From positions 203,528-267,527 of the forward strand of contig JAHFKN010000001.1 of NCBI GenBank assembly GCA_023245355.1: a stretch of 64,000 nt of DNA, read 5' to 3'. The DNA comes from Candidatus Gottesmanbacteria bacterium (lineage in GTDB: Bacteria; Patescibacteriota; Microgenomatia; UBA10105; UBA927). Shown piece by piece: positions 207 to 34,604 of this stretch. Under the pieces are notes generated by a model. The model was not told the DNA's origin, did no database searches, and saw only the letters and a program-made list of their open reading frames with translations. Positions within the stretch are counted from its first letter, which is position 1. Every line of letters starts with the position of its first letter. The translations under genes and the position numbers were made by a program.

Positions 207-830
207 GTGTGGGCAGATTCAGATCAAGGTGGACCAGTTACACCTAATAAAAAACATATGGCAAAACATAAACCAAAAAAACTGCTAACACTAACTGTTG
301 AGAAGATGCCCGAAGAATCTGAGCAGCAATATGCCGCATGGCTTTTGTACTGCGAAGCTGGGAGTCAAAAGAAGACAATGGACTATTGGGATAAGGTTGG
401 GCAAACCTTGGGTGAAGTTGGTGTGGATTTCGTCCTTCGCCTGGGTAAAAAGCCAAGTCACACAACCATAGAAAATTGGTCAAAAAAATATCGTTGGCCA
501 GAGCGCCGGGACCTACGCCTTGAGGAAGAACTTGTTGAACTAAAGGACAAAGTTGATCGCTTTAGAAAGAAAAGGAAGTATCTGGTGACAGAGCTACTCA
601 TCCAATCTGTGGCTAAGGTGCAAAAACAACTCAAGCAAGCCCCTGTATCAATTCTAGAACTGAAATACTTGTGGGAAATGCATAGGACTGAGTACGACGA
701 ATCAACCGGCAAGACCGAAGTCTCCCACCGTATAGACGAGAGTGAGCAGGTACCACCCACTGACAAGGATCAGGAACTGGGCAGAGAGATAGATACAGCC
801 ATCAAAAAATATTATGACAAACAAAGATAG
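207..830 (+). CDS. Putative terminase small subunit (called by position only; the start may be the internal Met at 255)
   Basis: A 200-aa basic/acidic protein lying directly upstream of the large terminase and overlapping it by 17 nt. No diagnostic motif was seen. Confidence 0.35.
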   Translation: MWADSDQGGPVTPNKKHMAKHKPKKLLTLTVEKMPEESEQQYAAWLLYCEAGSQKKTMDYWDKVGQTLGEVGVDFVLRLGKKPSHTTIENWSKKYRWPERRDLRLEEELVELKDKVDRFRKKRKYLVTELLIQSVAKVQKQLKQAPVSILELKYLWEMHRTEYDESTGKTEVSHRIDESEQVPPTDKDQELGREIDTAIKKYYDKQR

Positions 831-2361
831 AAGCAGTGTCTTACACTGGATACTAAACAACAAAATTAAGAATGAGAACGGCGAGCTTATCGAGTTCGAG
901 GACCACCGCTTCATGCTGGACATCTACGCAGACGAGGCGTCAGTACAGGTTATAAGGAAAGCATCCCAGGTTGGCGCCAGTACAATGGAGATCCTCAAGG
1001 TTATCCATGATTCACGCTTCTGGGGAATAAACCAGATCTATACCCTACCCACCGGGGATGACGTGCAGCAGTTCGTACAAAGCAAGGTAAACCGGATTAT
1101 AAACATCAATCCCTGCATGCTGGATGGTATCAACCCCAAGAGTGTCGACTCCATAGAGCAGAAGCAAATCGGTAAGGCTTTCACTTACTTTAAGGGCACG
1201 TTTACCGAGCGTGAGGCCATCATGCTCTCTTCTGACCGTAACATCCATGATGAGTTGGATAAATCCAAGCCTGAGGTGGTACGCGACTACACCTCGCGTA
1301 TGGGCTATTCCAAAATAAGAAGTCAGCACTTTTTCTCAACGCCAACCATTCCTGATTTTGGAGTGGATAAAATCTTTGAGCAGTCAGACCAGAAATACTG
1401 GCGCTTTAATTGCCCAAGGTGTCAGTACAGACAGCACATGGAGTGGGAGAAAAATGTTGATGAAATCCGGGGCATTTATATCTGCCAGAACTGTAAAAAG
1501 GAAATAATCCCCAAGGAAATCAATGATGGTGGCAGTTGGGAAGCCAAGTACCCTGGTAGACCAATCTCAGGCTACTGGATAAGCCAGCTCCACTGCCCTT
1601 GGAAGACAGCAGCCGATCTAATCAAAGAGAAATCAGATGCTGATGATGACACCTATTTTTATAACTTCGTCCTAGGCCTACCATACCTAGCTGCAGACCA
1701 GAAGATACCAGCCAGCTTATTTCTACGTAATGCTGTGGATAAAGAGGTGGATAACTTCGATGAATATAACGTCATGGGCATAGATACCGGCAAAGGGACT
1801 GGTAAGGGCAACCATGCCATCATAGGCAACCAGAAGGGCATCTTTTGGGTGGGAATCCTGCAAGACCACGAAGGCAATGACCGTTGGCAGCAAGCAGCCG
1901 AGCTAATCACCTTCTTCAACGTCAGGGTGGTCGTCATTGATGGCCAGCCTTATACCGAGGAGGCCTTCCTCTTAGCCAAGCAATTCCCTTATAGGGTGTA
2001 TTTATCATGGTTTAAGGATGACCCCAAGATGCTAGAGGTAATCCGCTTCTTTGACGAGAAGGAAAATAAGGATGCTGAATTTGAGGATGAGGTGAAGGTG
2101 TACTCCTCCCGCACCCGGATCATGGATGACACCATCTCTGCCCTGCGCCGGGGAGACATTAAGTTTGCCATGCCCTCTGACAGCCCTACCTTCAAGCTGC
2201 TTATCACCCATGCCCAAACCATGTACGCCAGAACGGTAACAGACAAACTGGGTCAGGCAAAGCGAGAGTGGGCCAACACTGGTCCAAATGATTTCTGGTT
2301 AGCACTTATTTATTGGCACATTGCCCTACGCAAACGACTTAAATATGAACCAAACAAATAA
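814..2361 (+). CDS. Terminase large subunit (GpA-like ATPase/nuclease)
   Basis: Deviant Walker A KASQVGAST resembles lambda gpA KSARVGYS. Cys pairs CPRCQ...CQNCKK form a zinc-ribbon. Size and position before the portal fit. Confidence 0.6.
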   Translation: MTNKDRSSVLHWILNNKIKNENGELIEFEDHRFMLDIYADEASVQVIRKASQVGASTMEILKVIHDSRFWGINQIYTLPTGDDVQQFVQSKVNRIININPCMLDGINPKSVDSIEQKQIGKAFTYFKGTFTEREAIMLSSDRNIHDELDKSKPEVVRDYTSRMGYSKIRSQHFFSTPTIPDFGVDKIFEQSDQKYWRFNCPRCQYRQHMEWEKNVDEIRGIYICQNCKKEIIPKEINDGGSWEAKYPGRPISGYWISQLHCPWKTAADLIKEKSDADDDTYFYNFVLGLPYLAADQKIPASLFLRNAVDKEVDNFDEYNVMGIDTGKGTGKGNHAIIGNQKGIFWVGILQDHEGNDRWQQAAELITFFNVRVVVIDGQPYTEEAFLLAKQFPYRVYLSWFKDDPKMLEVIRFFDEKENKDAEFEDEVKVYSSRTRIMDDTISALRRGDIKFAMPSDSPTFKLLITHAQTMYARTVTDKLGQAKREWANTGPNDFWLALIYWHIALRKRLKYEPNK

Positions 2362-2569
2362 CCCACCCAAAGTAATAACGGTCCCAGTGACAGAAGCAGA
2401 AGCCAAGATCTTGGCAGACATCCGCCGGGTGAAGTACGGACGAGTGGACGTTTATATCCAGGATGGCAAACCCTACCGTAAAGAAATCGTGGAGCAAGAG
2501 CGTATCACCCCAGAAGAAGGTGGCAGTGCGGGACAGTTCCCCCGCAAACAAGCTGGTATAGAGATTTAA
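2345..2569 (+). CDS. Small protein, DUF2292 (YezD)-like
   Basis: YGRVDVYIQDGKPYRKEIVEQERI resembles the YezD motif GSV.I.V.DGKVV.IE. The start was moved to Met 2345, just after the terminase stop. Confidence 0.3.
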   Translation: MNQTNNPPKVITVPVTEAEAKILADIRRVKYGRVDVYIQDGKPYRKEIVEQERITPEEGGSAGQFPRKQAGIEI

Positions 2570-2678
2570 TTACTCTCCTGACATAGGGATAAATTCACAA
2601 AACCCCAGCAATTCTTATATACTTAGAGCAGGAAAATGTTACTTTTCCCTAACTCGACCGTTTACTTTAATAGAAGCG

Positions 2679-3203
2679 GTGGAGAATGGATTTATTAGTA
2701 TGACGAAACCACCGTTTGAAGAGGTAGTTAAAAACTATATAAAACTAGTTTATTTCTTTGCCAAGAAATCCTTGTCTGATCAGGCAGACGTAGATGACAT
2801 GGTACAAGAAACCTTTTTGAAGGCTATGAAAACATACGATAAATTTAACTTTAAGAGTGAGGGTGAGTTGAAAAGCTGGTTATTAACCATTTGTCGCCAC
2901 CTGATCATCGATCAATTCCGCTCCCGCAAGCATACCGTGACCATGGATGACGAAAAAATGGATCTGTTTGGCAATGGTGAAACAGAAGAACTGCTGGAAG
3001 CCCAAATTGATAAAGAAGATAGCGTAAAGAAAATACAGAAGGCACTCGCCTTGTTAAAACCCACGGAAAAACAAATAATGAATCTGCGTGTATGTGAAGA
3101 GATGGAATTTAAAGAGATCGCCATTGCCCTATGTTCCAAAGAGGCTGCCGTTAAAATGCGATTTTATCGTGCATTAATTAAGCTCAAAGAATCACTGATA
3201 TGA
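2679..3203 (+). CDS. ECF-family sigma-70 factor
   Basis: Region 2 (LLTICRHLIIDQFRSRKH) and region 4 helix-turn-helix (EEMEFKEIAIALCSKEAAVKMRFYRALIKL) are both present. Confidence 0.8.
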   Translation: MENGFISMTKPPFEEVVKNYIKLVYFFAKKSLSDQADVDDMVQETFLKAMKTYDKFNFKSEGELKSWLLTICRHLIIDQFRSRKHTVTMDDEKMDLFGNGETEELLEAQIDKEDSVKKIQKALALLKPTEKQIMNLRVCEEMEFKEIAIALCSKEAAVKMRFYRALIKLKESLI

Positions 3204-4108
3204 AATTCAAAAGTATTATCAAACAAGCATTCGAGAAAGAGGAGCTAAAAGAAGCCAGACACATCGATGATCTGGAGAGCCAAATATTGATGAAGGTCCG
3301 GGCGGAGAAGACAGAAGAAGCAGAACTCAAAAGGTATTTTAGGCCAATAGAATCCTTTTGGAACTTTAAAATTCCGTATGCATTTGCCGTAGCTGTGTTG
3401 GCGGTTATATTCATTACCTTCACCACATCATCTGTTTTGGCAAAGGGTTCGGTCATGGAAATGCTGATAAACCTGAGGAACGCCCTACAACAGGAGCTGT
3501 CGCAGCTATTGAACACTGACCCAACTTATAGAGATAAAGGAACCCAGAAATACCAGCAAGCCCAAAAGGAATGGTGCTTGGTCAGCGCACGACCGGCAGA
3601 GGCGCGTGAGCAGGCGGTAGAAGCCGTAAGGGACTTCTTAGACCGGCCTGATGCCAATGTGGAGTATGAGTGTGTGCGAAACCCAAGCAATAACACGAAC
3701 GAGCAACCACAGACCGAAAGTTATATCGTCGACTTTGACCGCTTTACTATTGATACTCAAACCAATCAAATTACAGAGATGGCACCGACCGGCGGGAGAT
3801 GGGGAGAGAATAAAGACGGTACACGCTGGTTTAGTCCACAGAAGGAATACGACTACACCGCACGATATAGCCAGACTGAGGCAGAACAATTAGCCAGAAC
3901 CTTTATAGCTGACCATGAGAAGGCGTTGGGAAAGATTGATCTAAGCAAACTTACCCTAGAGAGTGGAAAGAAAGACGATGGATCCGGCAAAGTAAACTAC
4001 TTTTTCATCTGGAAAACTGATGGACAGGGTGAGGACATACCCCAGTTAAATATCTCTTATACCCAGGGTGGGCAACTCATCTCCTTCTTGAACGAATTGA
4101 TACACTGA
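3200..4108 (+). CDS. Putative anti-sigma factor, single-pass membrane protein
   Basis: Its start overlaps the sigma-factor stop (ATGA). It has a cytoplasmic N-terminus, one TM helix (YAFAVAVLAVIFITFTT) and a ~200-aa ectodomain. Confidence 0.5.
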   Translation: MKFKSIIKQAFEKEELKEARHIDDLESQILMKVRAEKTEEAELKRYFRPIESFWNFKIPYAFAVAVLAVIFITFTTSSVLAKGSVMEMLINLRNALQQELSQLLNTDPTYRDKGTQKYQQAQKEWCLVSARPAEAREQAVEAVRDFLDRPDANVEYECVRNPSNNTNEQPQTESYIVDFDRFTIDTQTNQITEMAPTGGRWGENKDGTRWFSPQKEYDYTARYSQTEAEQLARTFIADHEKALGKIDLSKLTLESGKKDDGSGKVNYFFIWKTDGQGEDIPQLNISYTQGGQLISFLNELIH

Positions 4109-4341
4109 TCCTGATTTTCTTCAGTAATCACCACTAACAAACAGCACTTGACATTCTCAAACTAATTTGTAATAGTTGATGTATGAGAAGTAAGAATAGT
4201 AAGTATTTACTTATACTACACACGCTTCGTTATCTCTTCCATAAGACATCCAGTGATTGTTCCCAAAACTCCCTTCCTTTGACAACCCAGGTTATTAGTA
4301 ATAACTGGGTTTATTTATAAATTAGTGCTTATAGAAAGGAG

Positions 4342-5145
4342 GTGAAAAATAAAAAAGCTATGAAGTATCCAAAAAGAATGTTAGTAATTCTTCCCCTACT
4401 TGCTGTCTCCGCTTTTGTCGGCTTCGGTCTCGCAAAGACTGATACCGTCGGCGCACAGCAAGACCCAAAACAGGCGAGGATAGAAACTCTGCAAAAGAAG
4501 TACCTAGACGCAGTCGAAAATGCTAAGACAAATGGTGAGTTCACCACGAACCAATTCGGCGAGAAAGTCTACGCTGGTAAAACAGCTGACGACCTAAAGA
4601 GTCTAGAGAAAGAGGTTGGTACTGAGATACGAGAACTGACAGCGCGTCCCGCTGCGGATAGAGCCAAGGCCGTTGAAGCCGTCAATGGATGGAATGATAA
4701 ATTCCTCTATACGATAGATAATCAGCCAAAGCAAACTCTCCAATATGCTGGTCGGTCAGGACAAGTTCAAGGCAGCAAACTCATTGGCGCAGAGCGGTAC
4801 TTTTCGGAAGACTATCAATTCACAATCGACCCGCAAACCAACAAAATCGTTGAGATGTATCTACGTCCCAAAGAAGTTGGCGAACCGGCAGCGTTCGAAG
4901 ACATGACCCCACGCTTTACCGAAGCTCAGTTAGAGCAAAAAGCCCGACAATTGATCGAGGCACAAAACTTAGGCGTGAATCTAAGCTCTTTGAAGTTCGA
5001 GAAAAACCATAAGGTAGGAACCTTTTTCTACACATGGGAAGGTGAAAAGATAGCAGACGGAGTACAACCCTCGCTTTACGTGGCATTCACGCAAGGTGGG
5101 CAACTGATCGGCTACATCAACGCAGGCTTTTTTGACAAACTATGA
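4342..5145 (+). CDS. Secreted protein, paralog of the anti-sigma ectodomain
   Basis: Signal peptide MKYPKRMLVILPLLAVSAFVGFGLA. Shares blocks with the 3200..4108 ectodomain: ARPAADRAKAVEAV vs ARPAEAREQAVEAV, FTIDPQTNKIVEM vs FTIDTQTNQITEM, FTQGGQLIGYIN vs YTQGGQLISFLN. Confidence 0.6.
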   Translation: MKNKKAMKYPKRMLVILPLLAVSAFVGFGLAKTDTVGAQQDPKQARIETLQKKYLDAVENAKTNGEFTTNQFGEKVYAGKTADDLKSLEKEVGTEIRELTARPAADRAKAVEAVNGWNDKFLYTIDNQPKQTLQYAGRSGQVQGSKLIGAERYFSEDYQFTIDPQTNKIVEMYLRPKEVGEPAAFEDMTPRFTEAQLEQKARQLIEAQNLGVNLSSLKFEKNHKVGTFFYTWEGEKIADGVQPSLYVAFTQGGQLIGYINAGFFDKL

Positions 5146-5765
5146 AAAACATATTTTCAAAAATCTTAATAGCATTGGCGGTGATAGCGGTCATGGGCTT
5201 TACCAGCGTGAGTAGTGCATTGGCCTTTGGCGATGCATCTATTTACTGCACGGGTGGTGGCTACTTTGACAAATTCGGCCCCAGCCAATACTGGTCCGAA
5301 TTTACGAGTATGGGATGGTGTAACGCCCCAGCTGGCAACAACTGGTGCGAGAATGGACAATGTGCCCAAAACTCACCCTACAATACTGTGACTCGCAGTA
5401 TGTGGAGAACCTACTCAGGGAGTCAACAGAGTAACTACGCCCGTTGGAATATGGGTAACGATGGTGGTTATTGGTACTGGTTTGCCTTTATACCAAGTAA
5501 CTATGCGACCACCTCGAGGGCGCCGTATACGATTACCTACGCGGGTGGGAGCCAATACAACTTCACTGTTAACCAGAATGCTTATTCAAACATCTGGGTA
5601 ACTCCTGGTTCACGAACTGAGAATTTCACTCAGATCATGAATACATGGTTATCTGATGCGACGAGCGAAAGCCCGTCTCAGCAAATTGGTTTTGATGAGG
5701 TTCAGAAATGTTCTGAAGCAAGTCAATACAGTGCTTATTGTCCAGGCAACCATACCAGAAGGTAA
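5142..5765 (+). CDS. Secreted Cys/Trp/Tyr-rich protein, unknown function
   Basis: Signal peptide ILIALAVIAVMGFTSVSSALA. Start is translationally coupled to the previous gene (ATGA). The mature part is rich in C, W, Y and N. Confidence 0.5.
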   Translation: MKNIFSKILIALAVIAVMGFTSVSSALAFGDASIYCTGGGYFDKFGPSQYWSEFTSMGWCNAPAGNNWCENGQCAQNSPYNTVTRSMWRTYSGSQQSNYARWNMGNDGGYWYWFAFIPSNYATTSRAPYTITYAGGSQYNFTVNQNAYSNIWVTPGSRTENFTQIMNTWLSDATSESPSQQIGFDEVQKCSEASQYSAYCPGNHTRR

Positions 5766-5848: not shown

Positions 5849-6391
5849 ATGAGAAATAAAAAGATAAACATCAAGGAAATAATCCTGATCGCTATTGCCT
5901 GCCTGGTAGTGACAACTGGCTCATATGCGATCTTTACCCATAAAGACAGTAGATTTGAGGCGGTAGACTTGGCCAACAGAACCGAGGATAAAGGAGTAGA
6001 AGATTACTTTGTCGAGAAACTTGGTATGAACGGCGAAGAAGCCAAGAAGTTTGCCGATCAAGGGGTGTCGTTTTATATCACTGGCACTACCAACCTGGAT
6101 GCTATTATCAGCAATCTCCATTACTATGGCCTGATTAAGGACGAGAAGGCCTTCAGAGAGGCATTGGCAAAAACTAAAGACACGCTGCCCGGTAATGAGA
6201 ATGCAATTAAAATAGGTAACAACACTATTGATATTCACGCTTACTATGGCCTGAAGAAGGGGCTCACCGCCTGGCAAGTAGCAGATGTACTACTTAATCA
6301 CCCGGTTTATTTGAAGGGTGAGGAATATAATTACATGTTTATGCCCGGAGAGTACTATGGTGATGCTGCCCAGAACACACCAGCACGATGA
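5849..6391 (+). CDS. Secreted or membrane-anchored protein, unknown function
   Basis: N-terminal hydrophobic segment IILIAIACLVVTTGSYAIF. Same strand as the rest of the cassette. Confidence 0.4.
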   Translation: MRNKKINIKEIILIAIACLVVTTGSYAIFTHKDSRFEAVDLANRTEDKGVEDYFVEKLGMNGEEAKKFADQGVSFYITGTTNLDAIISNLHYYGLIKDEKAFREALAKTKDTLPGNENAIKIGNNTIDIHAYYGLKKGLTAWQVADVLLNHPVYLKGEEYNYMFMPGEYYGDAAQNTPAR

Positions 6392-6416
6392 TAGTAAAAT
6401 TTAGTAGAATACGCTT

Positions 6417-6986
6417 ATGAAGTTAAAAACATTTTTAGTCTGTATCGCAACAATTATTGCCTTAGGTTTTATCATTAAAAACTTCACTGGCAATAACTCA
6501 AAGCAGTCACCCTCCCCTGCGCCTGCTGAGGTAACCAAAACCACACCTGATGCTGTACTGAAACCAGGTAGATCTCTCAAACCAAACGAGGAGTTTATAT
6601 CACCCTTCGGTTTATATGTAACTGTCCCCAAAGATATGACCTTCAGAAAAGAAGTAGCTGACGATGAAGGTATTATTCGTACAGTTGGGTTTTATATCGA
6701 AAACAGCAGTAAAGATAATCCCTATATGCTGTACGGATTATACGAAGCCAAAAATGTCGCCATTGATCAAACCATGGCAAGTGCCAAAAAAGATATGGTC
6801 GCCTCGACAATTAAAGACATAACAATCGGCGGGTATAAAGGTGTCGAAGGATTAATAACCGGCGACAAAACCAGATATATGGCAGTCATCGTCAAAGACG
6901 GCAAAAAGATCACCTTCTCGACTATTCCACCAACCGAAAGCAATAAAGTCATCACTGATCAGCTCCTCTCCACCTTCAGTTTTTAA
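6417..6986 (+). CDS. Secreted or membrane-anchored protein, unknown function
   Basis: N-terminal hydrophobic segment FLVCIATIIALGFII followed by a Ser/Pro-rich linker. Confidence 0.4.
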   Translation: MKLKTFLVCIATIIALGFIIKNFTGNNSKQSPSPAPAEVTKTTPDAVLKPGRSLKPNEEFISPFGLYVTVPKDMTFRKEVADDEGIIRTVGFYIENSSKDNPYMLYGLYEAKNVAIDQTMASAKKDMVASTIKDITIGGYKGVEGLITGDKTRYMAVIVKDGKKITFSTIPPTESNKVITDQLLSTFSF

Positions 6987-7050: not shown

Positions 7051-7124
7051 AGTTAGCCTAACGAATCAGTCGGGGCTTAGATTTATTTATTCGTAAAGAA
7101 TAGATGAACCTAAGCCCCTTTTTT
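7051..7124 (+). promoter_or_regulatory. Conserved box (GTTAG-C-CTAAC GAA N4 TCGGGGCT), long hairpin and U-run; copy 1
   Basis: Box at 7051-7076. Hairpin ggggcttag (7072-7080) pairs with ctaagcccc (7110-7118), then tttttt at 7119-7124. The same layout recurs at 14381-14461. Confidence 0.45.
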
Positions 7125-8978
7125 GTTATCTCTATGCCAGAAGTCATTGAAGAAAAAATATCAACCGAAAAAAACTACCAGCCTACCCCTGAAGAAGAAA
7201 AACTACTCATAAAATGGAAGGCCAGATTTAAACGTGCTAAAGAATTCCGTGAACCTTACCAAGCCAAGTGGTTGCGGATGTACCAACTCTACCGTGCCTA
7301 TCAACACAAGCAGAACTACGCTTATAACACCCGGCTGATGCCGCCGATCGCTTTTGAGATTGTTAAAACAGTGGTCTCTCGGTTGGCCACCGCTAAGCGC
7401 AAGACCACTATTATTCCCAGACACCAAGAGGATGTGAATTCAAAGGCATTAGGATCTTGGGGAAATCTGGTCAACTACGACTTTGACATTATTGATCTGA
7501 TCAAACGATTGCCTAACTGGATCGAATCTTCCGTTCTTTATGGAAACGGTATCGTTAAGCTTGCCTGGAAAGTCCTGAGTCGAAACGGCAAGGTAGTCTA
7601 TGACGATCCAACCATGGGACTTATTGACCTATGGGAACTGCTCCCAGCTCCAGAGACTGCAGATGACCTCCAGGATGGTTGCCCGTGGCTGATTCATCGT
7701 ATCGTTAAGCGGAAGGAAAAGATTGAAAAAGAAGAAACTGCCCGAGGTGAAAATAATATTTATAAGAACCTGGAGTTTTGTGAGCCGAAAATTGTTGAGG
7801 ATTGGAAAAAGGAACGGTATGAAATAAACGGTAAGAAAATGTCTCAGGTGGATGCCGGTACCAAGAAAGATGGTGGCGATGAGAAAATTGTCCCGGCCAA
7901 GTCAGACACCGAAAAACAACTAGAACTGTGGGAGTGTTGGGACTATGAAGAAGATAAACTGGTCGTTATTTGTAATGGCGAAATTCTTATTAGGGATGAC
8001 GAGAACCCATATCTGGGAGTAAACAACGGTCACATCTATGTTGACCTACCCGACATGCCACTCCTCTGGGAATTCTGGGCCACTGGCCATATCGAACCCG
8101 TCGAGACGACCATTCATGAAGTTGCTGACCTTAGAAACCAACGAATGGATGATGTGGTCTTAATGCTCGATCCTGTCGTTAAAATTCGTAAGGATTCCGG
8201 TATAACTAAAAACGATATCATCTTCTCTCCCGGCGCGACCTGGGAACTGAGAAAAATGGATGATGTGGTTATCGAAAGGCCACCAGAAATAAGCTTGATG
8301 GGAGTAAATGAAGATAAAATTATGCGAGATGAGATCTCCCGAACTCTGGCGCTTGGTGAATATATGCAAGGACAACCTCAGTCCCCCAATGAGCCGCTCG
8401 GGAAAGTGGCGGTGCTACTTGGTCAGAGTAACCTCCGATTAAGTATGAACGCCCAAAACATCGCGGTAGCACTAACCACAGTGGCCAATATCTTAATTCA
8501 ACTGAACCAGGAGTTTATAACGGAAGACAAATTATACCGGTTGGTAGGGAAAGAAGTCGACTTCAATGAGTTTAAAAAGGATGACAAAAAAGTGGTTGTG
8601 GACGCCATTGTTGAGGTGGAGCCGATTATACCTCCGGATAAAACCACGAGACTAAATCAAGTCCTTCTGATGTACGACAAGTTTATCGCCCAGGATAAGC
8701 CGGATCCGAACAATCCAGGGGAAGTAACACGCTGGTTGAAGCGTAAGCGCGAGCTTCAGAAGATGATTCTGGAAGAGCTGGATAAAGAGGAATATATAGA
8801 TGTGTTGCTGGGTCCGGAAGCAGAAGCTATGGCTCCACCTCAAACTAATAACGCACAAGCCCCCGTAACGCCAGCTGAGGGCCAAACTACACCAACAGAG
8901 CCAACTACAGCAGGTCCAAACAAAATTCAGCAGCTTATGGGAAAAATTCCAATTTTAGGGAAAATGCTGGGTGGTTAA
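7104..8978 (+). CDS. Portal (head-to-tail connector) protein; true start may be Met 7134
   Basis: About 620 aa, N-terminal EPYQAKWLRMYQLYR-type helix, Ala/Pro/Thr/Gln-rich C-terminus, placed between terminase and capsid. The track start contains the hairpin 3' arm and U-run. Confidence 0.5.
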   Translation: MNLSPFFVISMPEVIEEKISTEKNYQPTPEEEKLLIKWKARFKRAKEFREPYQAKWLRMYQLYRAYQHKQNYAYNTRLMPPIAFEIVKTVVSRLATAKRKTTIIPRHQEDVNSKALGSWGNLVNYDFDIIDLIKRLPNWIESSVLYGNGIVKLAWKVLSRNGKVVYDDPTMGLIDLWELLPAPETADDLQDGCPWLIHRIVKRKEKIEKEETARGENNIYKNLEFCEPKIVEDWKKERYEINGKKMSQVDAGTKKDGGDEKIVPAKSDTEKQLELWECWDYEEDKLVVICNGEILIRDDENPYLGVNNGHIYVDLPDMPLLWEFWATGHIEPVETTIHEVADLRNQRMDDVVLMLDPVVKIRKDSGITKNDIIFSPGATWELRKMDDVVIERPPEISLMGVNEDKIMRDEISRTLALGEYMQGQPQSPNEPLGKVAVLLGQSNLRLSMNAQNIAVALTTVANILIQLNQEFITEDKLYRLVGKEVDFNEFKKDDKKVVVDAIVEVEPIIPPDKTTRLNQVLLMYDKFIAQDKPDPNNPGEVTRWLKRKRELQKMILEELDKEEYIDVLLGPEAEAMAPPQTNNAQAPVTPAEGQTTPTEPTTAGPNKIQQLMGKIPILGKMLGG

Positions 8979-8983
8979 AATGA

Positions 8984-9373
8984 TCAGATGCTTTCTTGAT
9001 TGTGTGAAGCCAATTTAGAATCCTTAACGTTCCCAGTATTTAACGTACCTTTGGGCTCAATAAGAACTATGTGGACTTCTTCTTTTGCCTCGGGCTTGTG
9101 CTCGATTGGGTGGGGAATAATCACAAATTCACCCTCGTTTACTTGAACATCTTTATCTCGGAAATGAATTGTTAGTTGTCCCTTGATTACAAGAAATAAC
9201 TCATCTTCATTGTCGTGATGGTGCCAAACAAACTCTCCCTTGAGCTTTACAACTTGAACCTTATGGTTATTTAATTCACCGACGATCTTTGGATTCCAAT
9301 ACTCACTAAACAACGAGAGTTTATCTGCAATATTTACAACTTTCACGGAATAAGAGGTATTTTTCATAATCAT
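8984..9373 (-). CDS. Cupin-domain protein
   Basis: Cupin motifs: HHHDNEDELFLVIKG, then ...GEFVIIPHPIEH. Confidence 0.65.
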   Translation of the reverse strand: MIMKNTSYSVKVVNIADKLSLFSEYWNPKIVGELNNHKVQVVKLKGEFVWHHHDNEDELFLVIKGQLTIHFRDKDVQVNEGEFVIIPHPIEHKPEAKEEVHIVLIEPKGTLNTGNVKDSKLASHNQESI

Positions 9374-9439
9374 GAATATTGTAACAATTTTCTACATGAT
9401 TTGCTAGACTATATCAGTTGTAAGCAGTAACATAAGAAC

Positions 9440-10285
9440 ATGAACTACATAATTCGTCCAGCTACACGTAAGGAATTGTGTATCCCGATTGAGTGGGCGG
9501 CTAAAGAAGGTTGGAACCCAGGTCTTTTTGATGCTCGCGCTTTTTATTCTACGGATCCTCAAGGCTTTTTATTAGGATTGCTTGATGGAGAACCAATTGC
9601 TTCGATCTCGTCCGTTGCATATGATTCTAGTTTCGGTTTTCTTGGGTTTTATATTGTTAAACCCGAATATCGCGATAAAGGGTATGGCATTCAAATTTGG
9701 AATGCAGCAATAAAACATTTACCCACGCAAAACATTGGTCTAGATGGTGTACTAGCTCAACAGGAAAACTACAAAAAATCCGGTTTCAAATTAGCATATA
9801 GAAACATAAGATACGAAGGAATGGGTACTAGTGCTCATCAAGTGGATAATCCAAGTGTAATCCCCTTATCAAGCATTCAATTTGAACAGCTTTTTAAATA
9901 CGATAATCAAGTTTTTCCAACAAGCAGATCGGTATTTCTAAAAGAGTGGATCAAGCAATCGGAAAGCTTGGCAGTTGCTTACCAAAAAGATGGAAACCTA
10001 CTTGGATATGGGATGGTGAGAAAATGCCGAATCGGATATAAAGTGGGCCCTTTATTTGCTGACAATAAAGACATTGCAGATGTACTCTTTCAGAAAATGA
10101 GGTCTTTTGTTGGTCAAGATAAGCAAATATTTCTAGATACCCCAGGAGTAAATAAATCAGCAATTTTATTAGCTGAGAAGTATGGAATGAAACCAGTGTT
10201 TGAAACTGCCCGCATGTATACTAAAGACGTACCAAAAGTACAACTCAAAAAGGTTTTTGGAGTAACAACTTTTGAACTTGGATAA
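9440..10285 (+). CDS. GNAT-family N-acetyltransferase (two-lobed)
   Basis: GFYIVKPEYRDKGYGIQIWNAAIKH matches the acetyl-CoA binding motif A (R/Q-x-x-G-x-G/A). Confidence 0.6.
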   Translation: MNYIIRPATRKELCIPIEWAAKEGWNPGLFDARAFYSTDPQGFLLGLLDGEPIASISSVAYDSSFGFLGFYIVKPEYRDKGYGIQIWNAAIKHLPTQNIGLDGVLAQQENYKKSGFKLAYRNIRYEGMGTSAHQVDNPSVIPLSSIQFEQLFKYDNQVFPTSRSVFLKEWIKQSESLAVAYQKDGNLLGYGMVRKCRIGYKVGPLFADNKDIADVLFQKMRSFVGQDKQIFLDTPGVNKSAILLAEKYGMKPVFETARMYTKDVPKVQLKKVFGVTTFELG

Positions 10286-10305
10286 GCATCTTGAACACGT
10301 TAAAT

Positions 10306-10333
10306 TTGACAAAAGACGAATTTTTTGTATAAT
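10306..10333 (+). promoter_or_regulatory. Sigma-70-type promoter with extended -10
   Basis: TTGACA at 10306-10311, a 16-nt spacer, then TGTATAAT with TATAAT at 10328-10333. Confidence 0.55.
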
Positions 10334-10339
10334 ATACTC

Positions 10340-10500
10340 AATACTTAGCTGTGAAGGTCTTTGGCAAGCTGGAGCTGAGCATTCTAAAAGCGGTCTGAAC
10401 TTAAGCGATTATCGATAGTACAGACAATTAGGGTGGAACCACGGGTTAAAAGAAAACTCGTCCCTTTGTATAAGAAATTATATGAAGTGACGAGTTTTTT
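10340..10500 (+). promoter_or_regulatory. T-box riboswitch leader 1 (transcription-terminating type)
   Basis: Core AATTAGGGTGGAACCACGG at ~10426-10444. A terminator follows: cucguc...gacgag stem then UUUUUUU at 10494-10500. Stem-I-like ggcaagctggagc carries a GGC (Gly) triplet. Confidence 0.6.
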
Positions 10501-10671
10501 TGTTACTTCATATAACGACAAGTTAATAGTAGCGATGAAAGGCCTGGCAACCTGGAGCTACACCAACAGTTAAAGAGGGTAAGTTTACTGGAAATCATGA
10601 CTTACCAATTAGGGTGGAACCGCGACCATATATGGCCGTCCCTAAGCGAAAGCTTATGGAGGCATATATGG
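10501..10671 (+). promoter_or_regulatory. T-box riboswitch leader 2 (candidate translational, SD-sequestering type)
   Basis: Second core AATTAGGGTGGAACCGCGACC at 10607-10627. ccatatatggcc (10626-10637) can pair with ggcatatatgg (10661-10671), burying SD GGAGG (10658-10662) and ATG 10668. No U-run follows. Confidence 0.5.
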
Positions 10672-11921
10672 ATACACAACCATACTACAAAACAATAATT
10701 GAACAGATTGACAAGCATACTGCTTATAGGCAGGAATGCCTTAATCTGATCGCTTCAGAAAATGTCTGCAGTCCTGCTGTGGCCAAGATTCTATCTTCTG
10801 ATTTAACCAATCGTTACTCTGTTGGACGTCCTCGCGCGAGATGGTTCCCAGGATTACAGTACTACGACAAAGTTGAGGAAATTGCGGAAAAGCTTTCACA
10901 AAAACTATTCCATGTCCAGTATGCCAATGTTCAAGCCCCTACGGGAATGGTGGCTAATATGGCCGCTTATTTAGCGGTGCTTAAACCCAACGACCTGGTG
11001 TTAGCTCTGCGCGTTAAACACGGAGGACACTATAGTCATGTTGCCGAGAATATATTCAAAAGCTTCAACATCCGCGTTGAGGATCTTCCCTTTGATGAAC
11101 AGTCATATTCTGTAGACATTGAGAGAGCCATTGATCTCATTAGGGTTAAGAAACCACAAATGATTATTCTTGGAACTTCGGAGTTTTTATTCCCAGCACC
11201 CATTAGAGAATTAAGGCAGGTGTGCAACAAAACAAACACTAAAATTCTTTATGATGCCTCACATGTCTCAGGACTCGTGGCTGGACAAACTTTCCAAAAT
11301 CCAATGGCAGAAGGAGCAGATATTCTCACAATGAGCACCAATAAGACATTGGCTGCCCCAAGTCATGGACTTGTGGCCTGCAACGACACAGTCAAGTATC
11401 AGGCTGACTTTGAACATGCAATTACCCCTCTCCTAACGTCAAATCACCATGCGCACCATGTCGCTGCTTTGGCCATGACCTTGGCAGAGTTTGATGTTTT
11501 CGGACACGAATACGCTGCTCAAATTATTATGAATGCAAAAACTTTGGCACGAGCCCTTTATAACCAAGGGGTAAAGGTTTTATGCCCTGAAAAGGATTTT
11601 ACCGAGAGTCACACTGTTTTGATTGATACTGTGACCTCATCAAAAGAAGCAGTGCAGAAGTTGGCTGAGGCAAACATTATGACAAATTCGTTTCAACTTC
11701 CCTGGAATGAAGATGGGTTTGAAAGTGGAATCCGAATAGGAACAAACGAAATAACCAGACTTGGAATGAAAGAGTCAGAGATGAATGTTGTTGCCGATTT
11801 AATAGCAGCTGTTTTATTGAAAAAACAATCGATCGCTGAGATTAAACGGAAAGCACAAAATCTTAGATTGTCTTATCAGACAGTTAATTATTGTTTTAAT
11901 CCAGCTCAATTAAGTAGCTGA
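10668..11921 (+). CDS. glyA: Serine hydroxymethyltransferase-like PLP enzyme
   Basis: LIASENVCSPAV matches SHMT LIASENF; HGGHYSHV matches GGHLTHG; STNKTL sits at the PLP-lysine position. Start set at Met 10668 behind GGAGG. Confidence 0.7.
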   Translation: MDTQPYYKTIIEQIDKHTAYRQECLNLIASENVCSPAVAKILSSDLTNRYSVGRPRARWFPGLQYYDKVEEIAEKLSQKLFHVQYANVQAPTGMVANMAAYLAVLKPNDLVLALRVKHGGHYSHVAENIFKSFNIRVEDLPFDEQSYSVDIERAIDLIRVKKPQMIILGTSEFLFPAPIRELRQVCNKTNTKILYDASHVSGLVAGQTFQNPMAEGADILTMSTNKTLAAPSHGLVACNDTVKYQADFEHAITPLLTSNHHAHHVAALAMTLAEFDVFGHEYAAQIIMNAKTLARALYNQGVKVLCPEKDFTESHTVLIDTVTSSKEAVQKLAEANIMTNSFQLPWNEDGFESGIRIGTNEITRLGMKESEMNVVADLIAAVLLKKQSIAEIKRKAQNLRLSYQTVNYCFNPAQLSS

Positions 11922-11935
11922 AGGAGGTAAATTAT

Positions 11936-12478
11936 ATGGCAAAACCAGAACAGTCAGAATCAATGCAAGAATTCGAACAACGCTGTATTGAGACAGTGAA
12001 GCGAATGCGTGCTCAGGCTCACAAGGTGTTAGATAGGGCTGGAACAGTTCATAAAGCTCAACCGCTCAAGAAGTGGGAAAAGATTGTTTATCCCCTTCTG
12101 GGAATGAAGCCCGAAGGTTATATGGAGTTTGATTCGGCCAACGATCCACGATTAGCGATCGTCACAAGGGCGGCTGCTGGAGGACTGGTAACCCCAAGAG
12201 TTAGAGTTCTGGCACCATCTGAAAGAAACGAAATGTCAGCTATGGAAGTTCGACTGTCCGGCAAACAGCCAGAGACTGGAAGAAATGTCGACATCATGAG
12301 TGTTGACCTCCCAGAGGGATCAAATAGTGCAGTACAAACAAAAGTAATTTTGTGGACCGCACCCTTACCAGGGAGGATTCCATTTTATGAAGTCATGGAT
12401 TCAAACTTTGCCGAAGTAGTAGACTTAACAATAAGAACTCTGGAACACATTAATAAATGTTTATCTGAAAGGAAATAA
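11936..12478 (+). CDS. Hypothetical protein between glyA and glyQS
   Basis: ORF with a GAAGGAGG ribosome-binding site, sitting in the same operon. No motif recognised. Confidence 0.45.
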   Translation: MAKPEQSESMQEFEQRCIETVKRMRAQAHKVLDRAGTVHKAQPLKKWEKIVYPLLGMKPEGYMEFDSANDPRLAIVTRAAAGGLVTPRVRVLAPSERNEMSAMEVRLSGKQPETGRNVDIMSVDLPEGSNSAVQTKVILWTAPLPGRIPFYEVMDSNFAEVVDLTIRTLEHINKCLSERK

Positions 12479-12480
12479 AT

Positions 12481-13860
12481 ATGGACACAACAATGCAAAA
12501 AATCGTCAGTTTATGTAAAAGAAAAGGGTTTGTTTATCCAAACTCTGAAATTTACGGAGGAATTCAGGGGTTCTATGATTACGGACCACTAGGAGCCGAA
12601 CTACAAAATAACATCAAGCGGGTTTGGTGGAAATGGATGACCCAACTCCATGATGATGTCTATCCAATTAACGGAGCAATCATCACCCATCCGAAGGTTT
12701 GGGAAGCATCAGGACACGTTCAGAACTTCACCGATCCGTTAGTCGACTGCAAAAAATGTCATAAACGTTTCCGAGCCGATCACTTGGTTGAGGAATTCCT
12801 CACAGAGGATGCTGGAACTGCTAGTCAAAATCGCTTGGATCAGATAGCAGCAGAACTTAAATCAAGACACATTGTTTGCCCTGAGTGTGGAGGAGAGTTT
12901 ACCGAGGTCCGCAAATTCAATCTTATGGTTGAAACTTCCCTTGGGGTTGTTGAAGGCGAAAAGATGACGGCTTATCTCAAGGGGGAGGCATGCCAAACGA
13001 TCTACCTGGATTACCAGAATGTGCTTAATTCGACTAATGCCAAAATTCCTTTTGGGATATGTCAAATCGGGAAGGCTTTCAGAAATGAAATCACCCCAGG
13101 ACATTTTTTATTTCGTCAGCGTGAGTTTGAACAGTGGGATCTCCAATGGTTTACCAATCCCAAAGAAATGGATAAATGGTATGAGTACTGGAAAGCAGAA
13201 AGAATGATGTGGTATCAAAGCCTAGTGAATCATAAAGATCGTCTGCGCTTTAGACAACACGATCAAAACGAACTTGCTCATTACGCGAAAAAGGCATTCG
13301 ATATCGAGTATGAGACTCCATTTGGATGGAAAGAATGGGAAGGAATCCACTGGCGTGGAGACTGGGATTTGTCCCGTCATGGGCAATACAGTGGGAATGA
13401 TTTTACCTATACTGATCAAAAAACAGGTGATAAATTTATTCCTTGGATTGTCGAAACATCAGGAGGAGTTGATCGCACTTTCCTTTTCCTGCTCATTGAT
13501 GCTTACGATGAAGAGGTCGTAGATGGGAAAACGAGAGTGGTTCTACATTTACGACCAGACCTAGCTCCGTACAAAGTAGCGGTCTTCCCGTTGGTATCCA
13601 ACAAAGAAGATATTGTCGAAAAGGCAAAGTCAATCTACAGAGCATTAAAACCTAGCATTGCAACCATTTGGGACGATATCGGGAATGTTGGAAAGAGATA
13701 TCGAAGACAAGATGAAGTTGGTACTCCGTGGTGTGTCACGGTTGATTACCAAACACTTCAGGACGATACGATAACAGTTCGAGATCGAGACACTATGAAA
13801 CAAGAAAGAGTGAAGGTATTAGATCTGGAATACTTTTTTGCCGAGAAGTTGAAAATTTAA
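12481..13860 (+). CDS. glyQS: Glycine--tRNA ligase (dimeric class II GlyRS)
   Basis: Class II motif 2 QIGKAFRNEITPGHFLFRQREFEQWDLQWF. N-terminal GFVYPNSEIYGG...YDYGPLG is typical of alpha2 GlyRS. Confidence 0.85.
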   Translation: MDTTMQKIVSLCKRKGFVYPNSEIYGGIQGFYDYGPLGAELQNNIKRVWWKWMTQLHDDVYPINGAIITHPKVWEASGHVQNFTDPLVDCKKCHKRFRADHLVEEFLTEDAGTASQNRLDQIAAELKSRHIVCPECGGEFTEVRKFNLMVETSLGVVEGEKMTAYLKGEACQTIYLDYQNVLNSTNAKIPFGICQIGKAFRNEITPGHFLFRQREFEQWDLQWFTNPKEMDKWYEYWKAERMMWYQSLVNHKDRLRFRQHDQNELAHYAKKAFDIEYETPFGWKEWEGIHWRGDWDLSRHGQYSGNDFTYTDQKTGDKFIPWIVETSGGVDRTFLFLLIDAYDEEVVDGKTRVVLHLRPDLAPYKVAVFPLVSNKEDIVEKAKSIYRALKPSIATIWDDIGNVGKRYRRQDEVGTPWCVTVDYQTLQDDTITVRDRDTMKQERVKVLDLEYFFAEKLKI

Positions 13861-15902: not shown

Positions 15903-17069
15903 ATGCCATCAGCAACAGGAATAAAAGGAACAGGAAATTTAGGAGTCTTACGTAAGTACGACGTCGCCGACGTGGTCTCGCTACTCGACGTTAATCGTTA
16001 TCCTCTTTTGGCCATCTTGACCAATGCAGGAAAAGATCCAGCAAGTGGTGAAGGTAAAGCCTTGAAAAAGAGTGAAGCGGTAGACCCGGAGTTTAAGTGG
16101 TATGAAGATGACTTTGGTCGTCGCCAATTAACCGGTTCAGCAACTGTCGATCCCGATGGAGGGAACTTGACTGTCACCGGTCAATCACAGTACTTACAAG
16201 TTGGAGATGTAATTTTGGCTGCTGCCCAGAAATGGGTCTTCCAAGTTACTGCTATTGTCGATGCCAACACCGTCACGGTTGGTCCCGAATTAGGAGGGGC
16301 AACCGGCGCAGCTGCTTCGGCAGTTGGAGATGTCTGGCTTATCGGAAACGCTAATGAAGAGGGTGCAGGATTAAGAGATATAAAGTCAACGATCATCCAA
16401 GAAATATCGAACTACTGCCAAATCTTCAGAACGCCAGTCGGTATTACTGAAACATCCAAAAACACTAAGGGATTAACCAAGGAAAACGACTTTGATTTTC
16501 AAAGGCGAAAGAAAGGTATCGAGCACTATGTCGATATCGAAAGATCGTTCTTATTTGGCAAGAAAGGCATCATCACTACAGGGACTCATCCAAAACGATT
16601 CACTGCTGGTATCTTGTCTAGGATTGCAACCTACGCTACAGCGAGTGTTGATACAGAATCAGAATTTGATGCTTGGTTGGAGAGCTTATTTGCACACGGA
16701 AATACAGAAAAATATTTGCTTGCATCTGCGGCCGTGGTTTCCATGGTCAACGGTTGGGCAAAGGGAAAGCTACAGATCGTAAGTCCAACAAAGGCTTATG
16801 GACTGCGAATCGTAACCTACGATTCTCCACACGGAACGCTACACATGATCAAACATCCATTATTAACTGGAACGACATACGGAAATTATGCTGTCGGTTT
16901 GGACATGGAATGTTTGACCTACCGCTACTTGAGCAATCGAGATACCAAGCTTTTGACTAACCGTCAGGCCAATGGTGAAGATAGTCAAGTCGATGAATAT
17001 CTGACCGAATGCGGTCTGCAAATGGAGCAAGAGTCACGCCATGCCATTATGAGCATCGGTGCGCTCTAA
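15903..17069 (+). CDS. Major capsid protein (putative)
   Basis: 388 aa, follows the scaffold, strong GGGAGGTGA ribosome-binding site, a terminator-like hairpin pair downstream, and Gly/Thr/Ala-rich beta-type composition. Confidence 0.5.
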   Translation: MPSATGIKGTGNLGVLRKYDVADVVSLLDVNRYPLLAILTNAGKDPASGEGKALKKSEAVDPEFKWYEDDFGRRQLTGSATVDPDGGNLTVTGQSQYLQVGDVILAAAQKWVFQVTAIVDANTVTVGPELGGATGAAASAVGDVWLIGNANEEGAGLRDIKSTIIQEISNYCQIFRTPVGITETSKNTKGLTKENDFDFQRRKKGIEHYVDIERSFLFGKKGIITTGTHPKRFTAGILSRIATYATASVDTESEFDAWLESLFAHGNTEKYLLASAAVVSMVNGWAKGKLQIVSPTKAYGLRIVTYDSPHGTLHMIKHPLLTGTTYGNYAVGLDMECLTYRYLSNRDTKLLTNRQANGEDSQVDEYLTECGLQMEQESRHAIMSIGAL

Positions 17070-18681: not shown

Positions 18682-19005
18682 GTGAAAACGATGCAAACAA
18701 ACGATGCAACACTATTACAAACAATTTTAGAAGCCATAGCTGCCAGTCCTGACAAAGTGATAGTTGAAAGAACAGTCGATGAAATGGGGGTATTACTGAA
18801 AGTCAAAGTCGATGAAAAAGATGCCGGAGCGGTGATTGGTAAAGAAGGTGCCACTATAGCGGCGATCCGAAAATTGATGGGCGTTTTCGGAAGGAAAAAT
18901 AATGCTCGGATAAACATCAAGTTAGATGTTCCGCCCAGAAAGAAATTAAAAACGTATGAAAAACCAAGTATTGAAGATCAAAACCACGATACAGGAAAAC
19001 TCTGA
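18682..19005 (+). CDS. KH-domain RNA-binding protein (KhpA/YlqC-like)
   Basis: GAVIGKEGATIAAIRKLM is the KH GxxG loop. Size and layout match KhpA. Its 3' end overlaps the track start of the next ORF by 50 nt. Confidence 0.5.
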   Translation: MKTMQTNDATLLQTILEAIAASPDKVIVERTVDEMGVLLKVKVDEKDAGAVIGKEGATIAAIRKLMGVFGRKNNARINIKLDVPPRKKLKTYEKPSIEDQNHDTGKL

Positions 19006-34530: not shown

Positions 34531-34604
34531 GCCTCCTTAGCTCAACGGCAGAGCAGCGGTATCGTAAACCGTAGATGTCAGTCCAATTCTGACAGGGGGC
34601 TCCA
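34531..34604 (+). tRNA. tRNA-Thr (anticodon CGU) with a non-canonical T-loop
   Basis: Manual fold: acceptor GCCTCCT/AGGGGGC, D-arm TAGCTCAACGGCAGAGC, anticodon stem GCGGT/ACCGT with loop ATCGTAA, T-stem GTCAG/CTGAC with loop TCCAATT, then TCCA. Confidence 0.55.

Follow-up and report, generated by a model that had tools for sequence, protein, structure and literature searches.

Why would the extracytoplasmic domain of a membrane-bound regulator recur as a free, secreted protein encoded right beside it? The question is raised by a stretch of 64,000 nucleotides (nt) from Candidatus Gottesmanbacteria (assembly GCA_023245355.1, contig JAHFKN010000001.1, positions 203,528-267,527 of the forward strand), which we refer to as the window. 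A gene for an extracytoplasmic-function (ECF, or group IV) sigma factor of the sigma-70 family (2679..3203, + strand, 174 aa) is followed there by one for a single-pass anti-sigma-like membrane protein (3200..4108, +, 302 aa) and then by one for secPar, a secreted paralog of the anti-sigma ectodomain (4342..5145, +, 267 aa counted from a GTG at 4342). We tentatively read the region as a two-unit envelope module carried as accessory cargo by temperate phages of Microgenomates, a group of the candidate phyla radiation (CPR)/Patescibacteria. One unit is the sigma/anti-sigma pair, and the other would pair secPar with an exported partner.

secPar is a paralog of the entire anti-sigma ectodomain

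A first-pass annotation of the window had noted collinear blocks shared by the membrane protein and secPar, with roughly a third of the residues identical by eye. This similarity held up: BLASTP aligned residues 128-298 of the anti-sigma-like protein with residues 99-260 of secPar at 31% identity over 180 columns (E = 8e-18). For a comparison of the two families we collected 114 homologs of the anti-sigma-like protein and 24 of secPar, and the profile-profile alignment made with hhalign reached 99.6% probability (E = 4e-24, 204 columns). It spans the whole extracytoplasmic part of the membrane protein and the whole of mature secPar, so the paralogy is broader than had been seen. R131, E173, Y175, G202, W271, a T-x-G-G-Q motif and N298 are universally conserved in both paralogs. 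The residue comparison also places secPar as the most diverged branch of the family: C126, C158 and the loop W201-G-x5-G-x2-W210 (WG..DG.RW), invariant in the three anchored tiers described below, are replaced or deleted in secPar.

The signal peptide of secPar (nt 4342-4455) ends at VGA38|Q39 and is followed by the mature part (nt 4456-5142). The start of the gene is ambiguous. The GTG at 4342 abuts a GGAGG box with zero spacing, while the equivalent of an ATG at 4360 (MKYP...), 18 nt past the box, is used in most homologs; the signal peptide is the same with either start.

Both paralogs share a PepSY-like fold within an unannotated family

AlphaFold2 models built on the family alignments gave both paralogs one common fold, in which helices lead into two modules, each made up of one helix and four strands. 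The mean predicted local distance difference test score (pLDDT) was 86.4 for secPar and 81.5 for the membrane protein, and the folded parts were confident in both. In the membrane protein, the modules occupy residues 133-211 (nt 3596-3832) and 225-298 (nt 3872-4093). The second structural neighbour of both models is 5COZ, after which come the PepSY domains of FoxB, pro-domains of M4/M36 proteases, YycH, YpmB and UipA. Both paralogs thus show the marks of the PepSY fold: a helix packed on a four-stranded antiparallel sheet, tandem copies and solved PepSY structures as nearest neighbours. The suggestion that the C-terminal part may be PepSY-like is therefore borne out at the level of fold and fails as Pfam membership. 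PF03413 is not in the Pfam matches of the window proteins, is absent among the matches listed for 97 family members at E <= 1 (the best 25 of 109 families), and is absent for 115 remote representatives at E <= 1e-3 (18 families). The nearest Pfam family is DUF4901, matched by 19/97 members with a best E of 0.0012.

When 1.84 billion cluster representatives were searched exhaustively with the family profile, only 248 proteins matched at E <= 1e-3, and the named sources are Daviesbacteria, Woesebacteria, Shapirobacteria, Pacebacteria, Nomurabacteria and other Patescibacteria. These proteins have four architectures. In the first, which is linked to a sigma factor, about 57 cytoplasmic residues precede one transmembrane (TM) helix and the ectodomain; the second and third are two tiers with an N-terminal anchor only; and the fourth is the secPar tier, in which the signal peptide ends in VGA|QQD, with A38, Q39 and D41 invariant and V36, G37 and Q40 conserved to at least 90%. 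The family thus constitutes an unannotated branch of the PepSY-like fold with a complete series of sigma-linked, anchor-only and secreted forms.

We gathered related loci, given L numbers below, by a profile search of genome contigs with an alignment of anti-sigma proteins only. To assess synteny, we compared the window proteins by tblastn with 32 such loci, which came from assemblies, IMG/VR and GTDB genomes. Several loci have further anchor-only PepSY-like copies: a third copy takes the place of the last cassette gene, g189, in L004 and L005 (12106..12852), an additional one lies between anti-sigma and secPar in L024 (12018..12737), a lone one follows a MerR-type helix-turn-helix (HTH) gene and small open reading frames (ORFs) in L010 (6001..6792), and another sits beside a 1696-aa M48-peptidase protein in L008, a Nomurabacteria element (6001..6891). 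About half of the anti-sigma tier (335-345 aa forms, e.g. P0020, P0024 and P0028; L011 10001..11020) has an insertion of ~35 residues in its second PepSY-like module (columns ~290-326 of the anti-sigma alignment, A3), which adds a pair of conserved cysteines (..TC(R/S)..PC..); the window protein has no such insertion.

The membrane protein is a candidate anti-sigma factor

The sigma factor matches Sigma70_r2 (4.2e-17), Sigma70_r4_2 (2.6e-8), the sigma factor family PHROG 1740 (4e-25) and the curated superfamily model TIGR02937 (1.4e-28, 99.6 bits against a cut-off of 42.9), and consists of regions 2 and 4 only, as ECF (group IV) sigma factors do. The anti-sigma gene overlaps it by 4 nt in every locus. 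The membrane protein begins with a cytoplasmic helix (residues 1-46, nt 3200-3337; helix 2-46 in the model), followed by the TM helix (residues 58-80, nt 3371-3439) and a helical stalk (residues 82-147) that leads into the first PepSY-like module. The cytoplasmic extension of ~57 residues, in which K17, H21, I22, L25, L30 and E36 are nearly invariant, occurs only in sigma-paired homologs, and anchor-only homologs are found in loci without a sigma gene. Because the gene is coupled to that of the sigma factor and the extension is exclusive to sigma-linked homologs, we tentatively assign the protein as an anti-sigma factor. With transmembrane anti-sigma factors in general it shares the translational coupling, the single TM helix and an N-terminus present only alongside a sigma factor.

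Alternatively, 3200..4108 could encode a membrane-anchored PepSY-like wall protein that is no anti-sigma factor at all and shares a transcript with sigma by chance, with the sigma factor controlled in another way or constitutive, for example as a phage transcription factor. The N-terminus indeed has no recognizable anti-sigma domain in Pfam or NCBIfam, its cytoplasmic part is a single helix of ~46 residues, the zinc-binding motif HxxxCxxC is absent (residues 1-57 contain no Cys), and the anchor-only relatives function without sigma. We nonetheless find this alternative very improbable, as it leaves unexplained why the conserved extension appears only with sigma and why the 4-nt overlap is always kept; short anti-sigma domains without zinc are also known among the classes of ECF anti-sigma factors.

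How might such a protein release its sigma factor? Just after the TM helix is a conserved V-x-A|K (residues 79-82, nt 3434-3445), with A at -1 (A81) in 30/30 sequences, V or A at -3 in 30/30 and K at +1 in 28/30. hhalign pairs V79-L80-A81|K82 at top confidence with V36-G37-A38|Q39, the signal-peptidase site of secPar. Residues 76-82 have a pLDDT below 50, and the helix that follows is moderately amphipathic (hydrophobic moment ~0.34). In addition, residues ~59-101 give sub-threshold matches to DUF4179 in 4/10 members (E 0.02-0.04, ~15 bits against a cut-off of 30.1). In RsiV, the DUF4179 region includes signal-peptidase site-1 together with the helices that protect it (PMC6066255), and in RsiV and RsiP cleavage at this site is gated by ligand binding (PMC6066255, PMC8844934). 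On the strength of the invariant Ala, the homology and pairing with the secPar site, the amphipathic helix and the DUF4179 matches, we propose that signal peptidase may cut the anti-sigma factor at V-x-A|K in an RsiV/RsiP-like manner, gated by the ectodomain. The likeness extends to the combination of an ECF sigma factor with a single-pass anti-sigma factor, and to a (V/A)-x-A followed by an amphipathic helix. It does not extend to the ectodomain, which is PepSY-like here, or to a DUF4179 match at threshold, and cleavage in our system is a prediction. The RsiV ectodomain is a lysozyme-binding domain.

The two units have separate promoter-like elements

Upstream of the sigma gene, AAAATGTTAC-N16-CCGTTTAC is nearly invariant in 26/26 sigma-bearing loci and has the AAC/CGT character of ECF promoters. 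In the window, this candidate promoter (TGTTAC-N16-CGTTTA, 2637..2664, +) ends ~15 nt before the sigma start, with a sigma70-like element (TTCACA-18-TATACT, 2594..2623) directly upstream of it. The ECF-type element occurs once in the 64-kb window, upstream of sigma only, and no other copy was found in 592 kb of related loci. IMG/VR and JGI metagenomes yielded 49 exact matches. Of these, 34 immediately precede a sigma homolog and three are copies of the same element cut by contig ends; the remaining 12 have unrelated spacers and are roughly the number expected by chance. We infer that the sigma factor is autoregulated through this element, which would act as its promoter. We also considered a role for the sigma factor as an activator of phage late genes. 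This idea was unsupported, as no ECF-type element precedes the portal, major capsid protein or any other gene in the window or the 592 kb of related loci.

The intergenic region before secPar is a second conserved, non-coding unit (4123..4341, +) with a box, AATCACCACTAA, and a sigma70-type promoter, TTGACA-N17-TGTAATAGT (4148..4176; consensus across loci TTGACA-N17-TGnAAT). The leader begins GTATGAGAAGTAAGAA and forms a small 5' GUAAG/CUUAC hairpin. Further on are a pyrimidine-rich sequence, CCCTTCCTTT, which resembles an anti-Shine-Dalgarno sequence and is complementary to the ribosome binding site; a terminator-like hairpin (4284..4311) with a T-run, three stem pairs of which show compensatory changes; and the ribosome binding site itself, AGAAAGGAGG, part of a near-invariant block before secPar. 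The unit recurs at 9808..10003 in L004, a Woesebacteria prophage without sigma, where promoter and leader are kept and the stem is fully compensated. In L013 it is duplicated before an inserted gene (~10900..10950 and 12646..12886).

A riboswitch or other known RNA in the leader was considered and rejected: there was no Rfam match and no global fold signal (z = -0.25), only two local hairpins. The unit may act as an attenuator or a small RNA, or as a target of antitermination (lambda PR'-tR'-like), and the promoter, leader and hairpin form a separate regulatory element in their own right. Between the anti-sigma stop and the secPar promoter no terminator was seen, so sigma-driven read-through into the second unit is possible.

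secPar diverges together with g207

secPar is followed by g207 (5142..5765, +), whose product is exported, rich in Cys and contains a domain like Golvesin_C (4e-5, 24 bits, under the cut-off of 31.6). In the window, L001, L004 and L011, the first 4 nt of g207 coincide with the end of secPar. We found 24 homologs of g207, with a distribution as narrow as that of secPar. Across the related loci, identity to the window proteins shifts jointly for secPar and g207, at ~77/79%, 55/56% and 31/35% in three groups. In the same loci secPar ranges from 31 to 78%, while anti-sigma stays at 52-63% and sigma at 62-65%. Identity to the window is correlated at r = 0.99 between secPar and g207, a value that rests on about three independent allele groups and not on 14 independent points, and at r = 0.28 between secPar and anti-sigma.

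These observations bear on the role that the first-pass annotation had suggested for secPar, that of a decoy or co-sensor, with ligand competition or partner-switching outside the cell. On this account, secPar would compete for the ligand of the anti-sigma ectodomain, or bind the ectodomain itself, and thereby set the threshold of sigma activation. There are reasons to take the idea seriously. The paralogs share a fold and universally conserved residues, PepSY modules are able to dimerize and to build extended sheets across domains, and cleavage at A81|K82 would shed a soluble ectodomain collinear with mature secPar. Read-through from the sigma unit is possible, and every sigma/anti-sigma locus with enough downstream flank has secPar (~20/20). 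The divergence of secPar, however, is uncoupled from that of anti-sigma, and secPar has lost the Cys pair and Trp-rich loop that are invariant in the anchored forms. It also has its own sigma70-type promoter and no ECF-type element. Moreover, L004 and L005, two Woesebacteria prophages, keep secPar-g207-g180 without sigma and anti-sigma, of which tblastn found no remnants. The decoy is thus unsupported, and we consider it unlikely; because the co-occurrence with sigma/anti-sigma is so strict, a functional link between the units is still conceivable and we regard the decoy as disfavoured rather than refuted.

The cassette lies in a variable interval of prophages

The secreted copy does stand beside a sigma/anti-sigma pair, as the first-pass annotation had it, but the setting is a phage accessory cassette and not a chromosomal sigma regulon. 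The window begins within a prophage, with phage genes to ~30.5 kb and cellular genes beyond, among them a tRNA-Thr gene at 34531. The cassette is preceded by the small terminase gene (terS, 207..830) and that of the large terminase, TerL (814..2361, +; Pfam GpA_ATPase 1e-14, PHROG 675 terminase large subunit 2e-90), and followed by that of the portal (7104..8978, +; SU10_portal 4.5e-6, below the Pfam cut-off, and PHROG 332/1216). The major capsid protein is encoded at 15903..17069, and further phage genes of the window encode an amidase-domain protein, a tail fibre and a 1451-aa protein. In L001, a near-identical locus on an 808-kb contig, HTH/M78 lysogeny genes and a ParB-methyltransferase gene lie upstream of the terminase.

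The gene order terS-TerL-orf82-sigma-anti-sigma-secPar-g207-g180-g189 is found wherever flanks allow (~20 non-redundant loci), and TerL, 74-97% identical across related loci, is always upstream of the cassette. The cassette is present on nine viral contigs of IMG/VR, and at least seven of these have a portal as well; these portals are 58-86% identical and lie 0-23 kb beyond g189. A chromosomal, non-phage origin of the cassette was rejected, as the portal is missing downstream only in L006/L023 and L011; the L006/L023 contig begins 1.5 kb upstream of sigma, so that the terminase side is outside it. Among 50,697 deposited phage genomes there was no anti-sigma homolog, and the TerL relatives found there were only ~25% identical. 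The cassette thus lies inside a phage genome between structural genes, has its own promoter and varies in content among relatives, as prophage accessory (moron) cassettes do.

Between cassette and portal, some relatives (L011 14967..21020; L013 15498..20752) have defence-type genes on the opposite strand, which encode AbiEii, a trypsin-like membrane protease, a PD-(D/E)XK protein, an Eco57I/MmeI-type restriction-modification enzyme and a 948-aa ATPase; the portal is 11-23 kb past these genes on the same viral contigs. Other variable cargo of the TerL-portal gap comprises YceG, an extra PepSY protein and SNase. Because gap content differs between relatives, we regard the interval, bounded upstream by TerL and downstream by the portal, as a variable accessory hot-spot of a temperate phage lineage.

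Although the cassette is otherwise confined to records named as Patescibacteria, several GTDB records that have it bear other names: L023, L024, L026-L028, L030 and L031 are named uncultured Gammaproteobacteria/Pseudomonadales bacterium, and L032 is named Chlamydiae bacterium. These are probably placeholders or binning errors, not true hosts.

A proposed function for the module

Taken as a two-unit envelope module, the cassette would work as follows. In the first unit, an autoregulated ECF sigma factor would be translationally coupled to the single-pass anti-sigma-like protein, whose ectodomain, a helical stalk and two PepSY-like modules of the YpeB type, may monitor a related extracytoplasmic protein or the state of the cell wall. 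Cleavage at the invariant V-x-A|K outside the membrane helix, in an RsiV/RsiP-like site-1 step, would free the sigma factor for its own promoter and, by read-through, possibly for the second unit. That unit, with its own sigma70-type promoter and structured leader, would provide four exported proteins. secPar, the first of them, would bind an exported partner. The likeliest one is the g207 protein, which is co-translated with secPar, diverges along with it and is possibly wall-targeting. There are precedents for such binding. The PepSY domains of YpeB clasp SleB as a chaperone-inhibitor, like the PepSY/FTP pro-domains of M4/M36 proteases (bioRxiv 10.64898/2026.06.01.729290); TseB is reported to bind PBP2A via its PepSY domains, and CopD works with pneumococcal penicillin-binding proteins via its TM and cytoplasmic parts (PMC10653890).

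The other two exported proteins come from g180 and g189. The g180 product (5849..6391, +) is N-terminally anchored and has a domain of ~80 aa weakly like the N-terminal part of YceG/MltG, with sub-threshold matches to YceG profile positions 2-64 (E 0.077) and, pairwise, to the host YceG (E 0.052). Its paralog in L013 (10944..11642) is 46% identical over 79 aa (E 5e-27) and has the same weak YceG match. We rejected g180 as a fragment of YceG/MltG, since the recurrent matches are all sub-threshold and the pairwise comparison with the YceG of L011 was not significant. The last cassette gene, g189 (6417..6986, +), encodes an N-terminally anchored or exported protein, is conserved in position in most loci and has no match in Pfam, PHROGs, NCBIfam or PADLOC.

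Several points weigh against this reading, in addition to the missing anti-sigma domain and zinc motif and the small number of allele groups. Neither paralog has a sequence match in Pfam, PHROGs, NCBIfam or PADLOC, nor in the PDB sequences, which were searched both with single sequences and with the family profile. With no PepSY, anti-sigma, at-threshold DUF4179 or defence model matched, the functional analogy rests on fold and gene order. The g207 protein has no recognizable enzyme domain, which makes 'client enzyme' a guess as its label, and the secPar/g207 overlap is missing in L006 and the group-C loci. Nor does the reading account for the terminator-like hairpin between promoter and secPar. 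Finally, scans of the window, the 592 kb of related loci, IMG/VR and the JGI metagenomes found no target of the sigma factor beyond its own promoter.

A link to the cell wall is nevertheless plausible. A distant g207 relative, P0309, combines Peptidase_M23 with Golvesin_C, g180 has its YceG-like matches, and bona fide YceG/MltG genes (Pfam 1e-63) are inserted between anti-sigma and secPar in L011 (11103..12077) and L013 (11649..12626). This theme, together with the known inhibition of secreted hydrolases by PepSY domains, also suits a reading in which the module serves envelope surveillance or superinfection exclusion. The PepSY-like proteins would then neutralize incoming wall-degrading enzymes, such as the virion lysins of competing phages, with the membrane form signalling attack via sigma and secPar and the wall-binding proteins serving as a shield. 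Three very divergent secPar/g207 allele groups against a TerL ~80% identical are what one would expect of interface proteins, and the AbiEii, restriction-modification, PD-(D/E)XK, trypsin-like and large ATPase genes of the relatives lie in the same TerL-portal gap. Those defence genes, however, are co-located in a subset of loci only. No PADLOC-DB 2.0 model matches anti-sigma, secPar, g207, g180, g189 or orf82, and the sole PADLOC match is a marginal one of sigma to MzaA (E 2.6e-4, 17 bits). There is also no identifiable effector, any enzyme target would be hypothetical, and we judge this reading improbable.

Other genes of the window

An 82-aa ORF, orf82 (2321..2569), overlaps the 3' end of the terminase gene and directly follows TerL in all related loci at 40-93% identity; its sole match is a weak one to DUF2292 (E 9e-4). 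The portal-to-capsid interval (8984..13860) has cellular-type genes for a cupin (minus strand), a GNAT acetyltransferase, a serine hydroxymethyltransferase (Pfam SHMT 7e-64), a class II aminoacyl-tRNA-synthetase-like protein (tRNA-synt_2b and HGTP_anticodon) and a 180-aa ORF. These are possible auxiliary metabolic genes of the phage; in L004, the same interval holds small ORFs only. A 551-aa protein of the structural module (18956..20611) ends in an amidase/endolysin domain (PHROG 822, 9e-25). Possibly a muralytic enzyme of the virion or of lysis, it may represent a candidate class of ligand for the PepSY-like proteins. The host YceG gene (32600..33598, -, Pfam 7e-67) is just past the prophage end.

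Relation to known systems and significance

One of the closest known systems is YpeB of Bacillus (PDB 5BOI; 11-15% identity), the partner and inhibitor of the lytic transglycosylase SleB. YpeB has three modules where ours have two, and it acts in sporulation, whereas the present proteins belong to CPR phages. Here, one paralog has a cytoplasmic, sigma-linked extension while the other is cleaved and secreted, and the cassette contains no SleB-like enzyme.

The nearest precedent in the literature, however, concerns the RsgI-type anti-sigma factors of Firmicutes, which Brogan et al. found often to have SEAL-PepSY ectodomains, with relatives that have no anti-sigma domain or even no TM helix (PMC10556640). 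The same series of anti-sigma, anchor-only and secreted forms is found here. SEAL, described as largely restricted to Firmicutes, is a juxtamembrane beta-sheet packed on two helices, and its conserved Asn-Pro lies in a beta-hairpin of three residues (PMC10556640). The presence of N161-P162 in our anti-sigma-like protein prompted us to consider SEAL/RsgI membership, which we rejected on structure and on tier distribution: next to the membrane, residues 82-147 are helical throughout, and N161-P162, which no tier but that of the anti-sigma conserves, sits in a loop of ~14 residues with a pLDDT of ~58. Our family therefore differs from SEAL-PepSY proteins in having a helical stalk between the TM helix and module 1 and no SEAL domain, and its sigma factor is of the ECF type and not the SigI type.

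Phage morons offer a third comparison, as they too have their own promoter, lie between conserved morphogenesis genes and vary in content among relatives. The cargo in this case is a complete trans-membrane signalling pair plus a set of exported proteins, conserved as a block among phages with terminases ~75-80% identical. Anti-sigma factors that have PepSY ectodomains, and free paralogs as well, are thus a kind already known; what is new is a distinct, unannotated family as conserved cargo of temperate CPR phages. In the literature we came across no sigma/anti-sigma pair described from CPR phages, and trans-membrane signalling by phage-encoded sigma/anti-sigma pairs is hardly documented in general.

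With its architectural series, the family offers a natural experiment that could show how signalling proteins come to recruit a binding module. Most speculatively, and with little expectation that it will prove right, the cassette could be a phage trans-envelope device of a kind not yet described, a surveillance or exclusion system in which a signal-peptidase-gated anti-sigma factor would hold the ECF sigma factor and, through its PepSY-like ectodomain, detect a muralytic or other extracellular enzyme, and a rapidly diversifying secreted PepSY-like inhibitor would act alongside wall-binding proteins. Its ligand, if we follow this long shot further, might for example be a lysin brought in by a superinfecting phage, or an enzyme that is exchanged across the episymbiotic interface. 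The genomes of CPR bacteria are minimal, and their cells rely on contact with others. For this reason, a prophage that brings a wall-sensing regulator and a set of exported, wall-associated proteins could alter how these bacteria interact with their hosts and with other phages.

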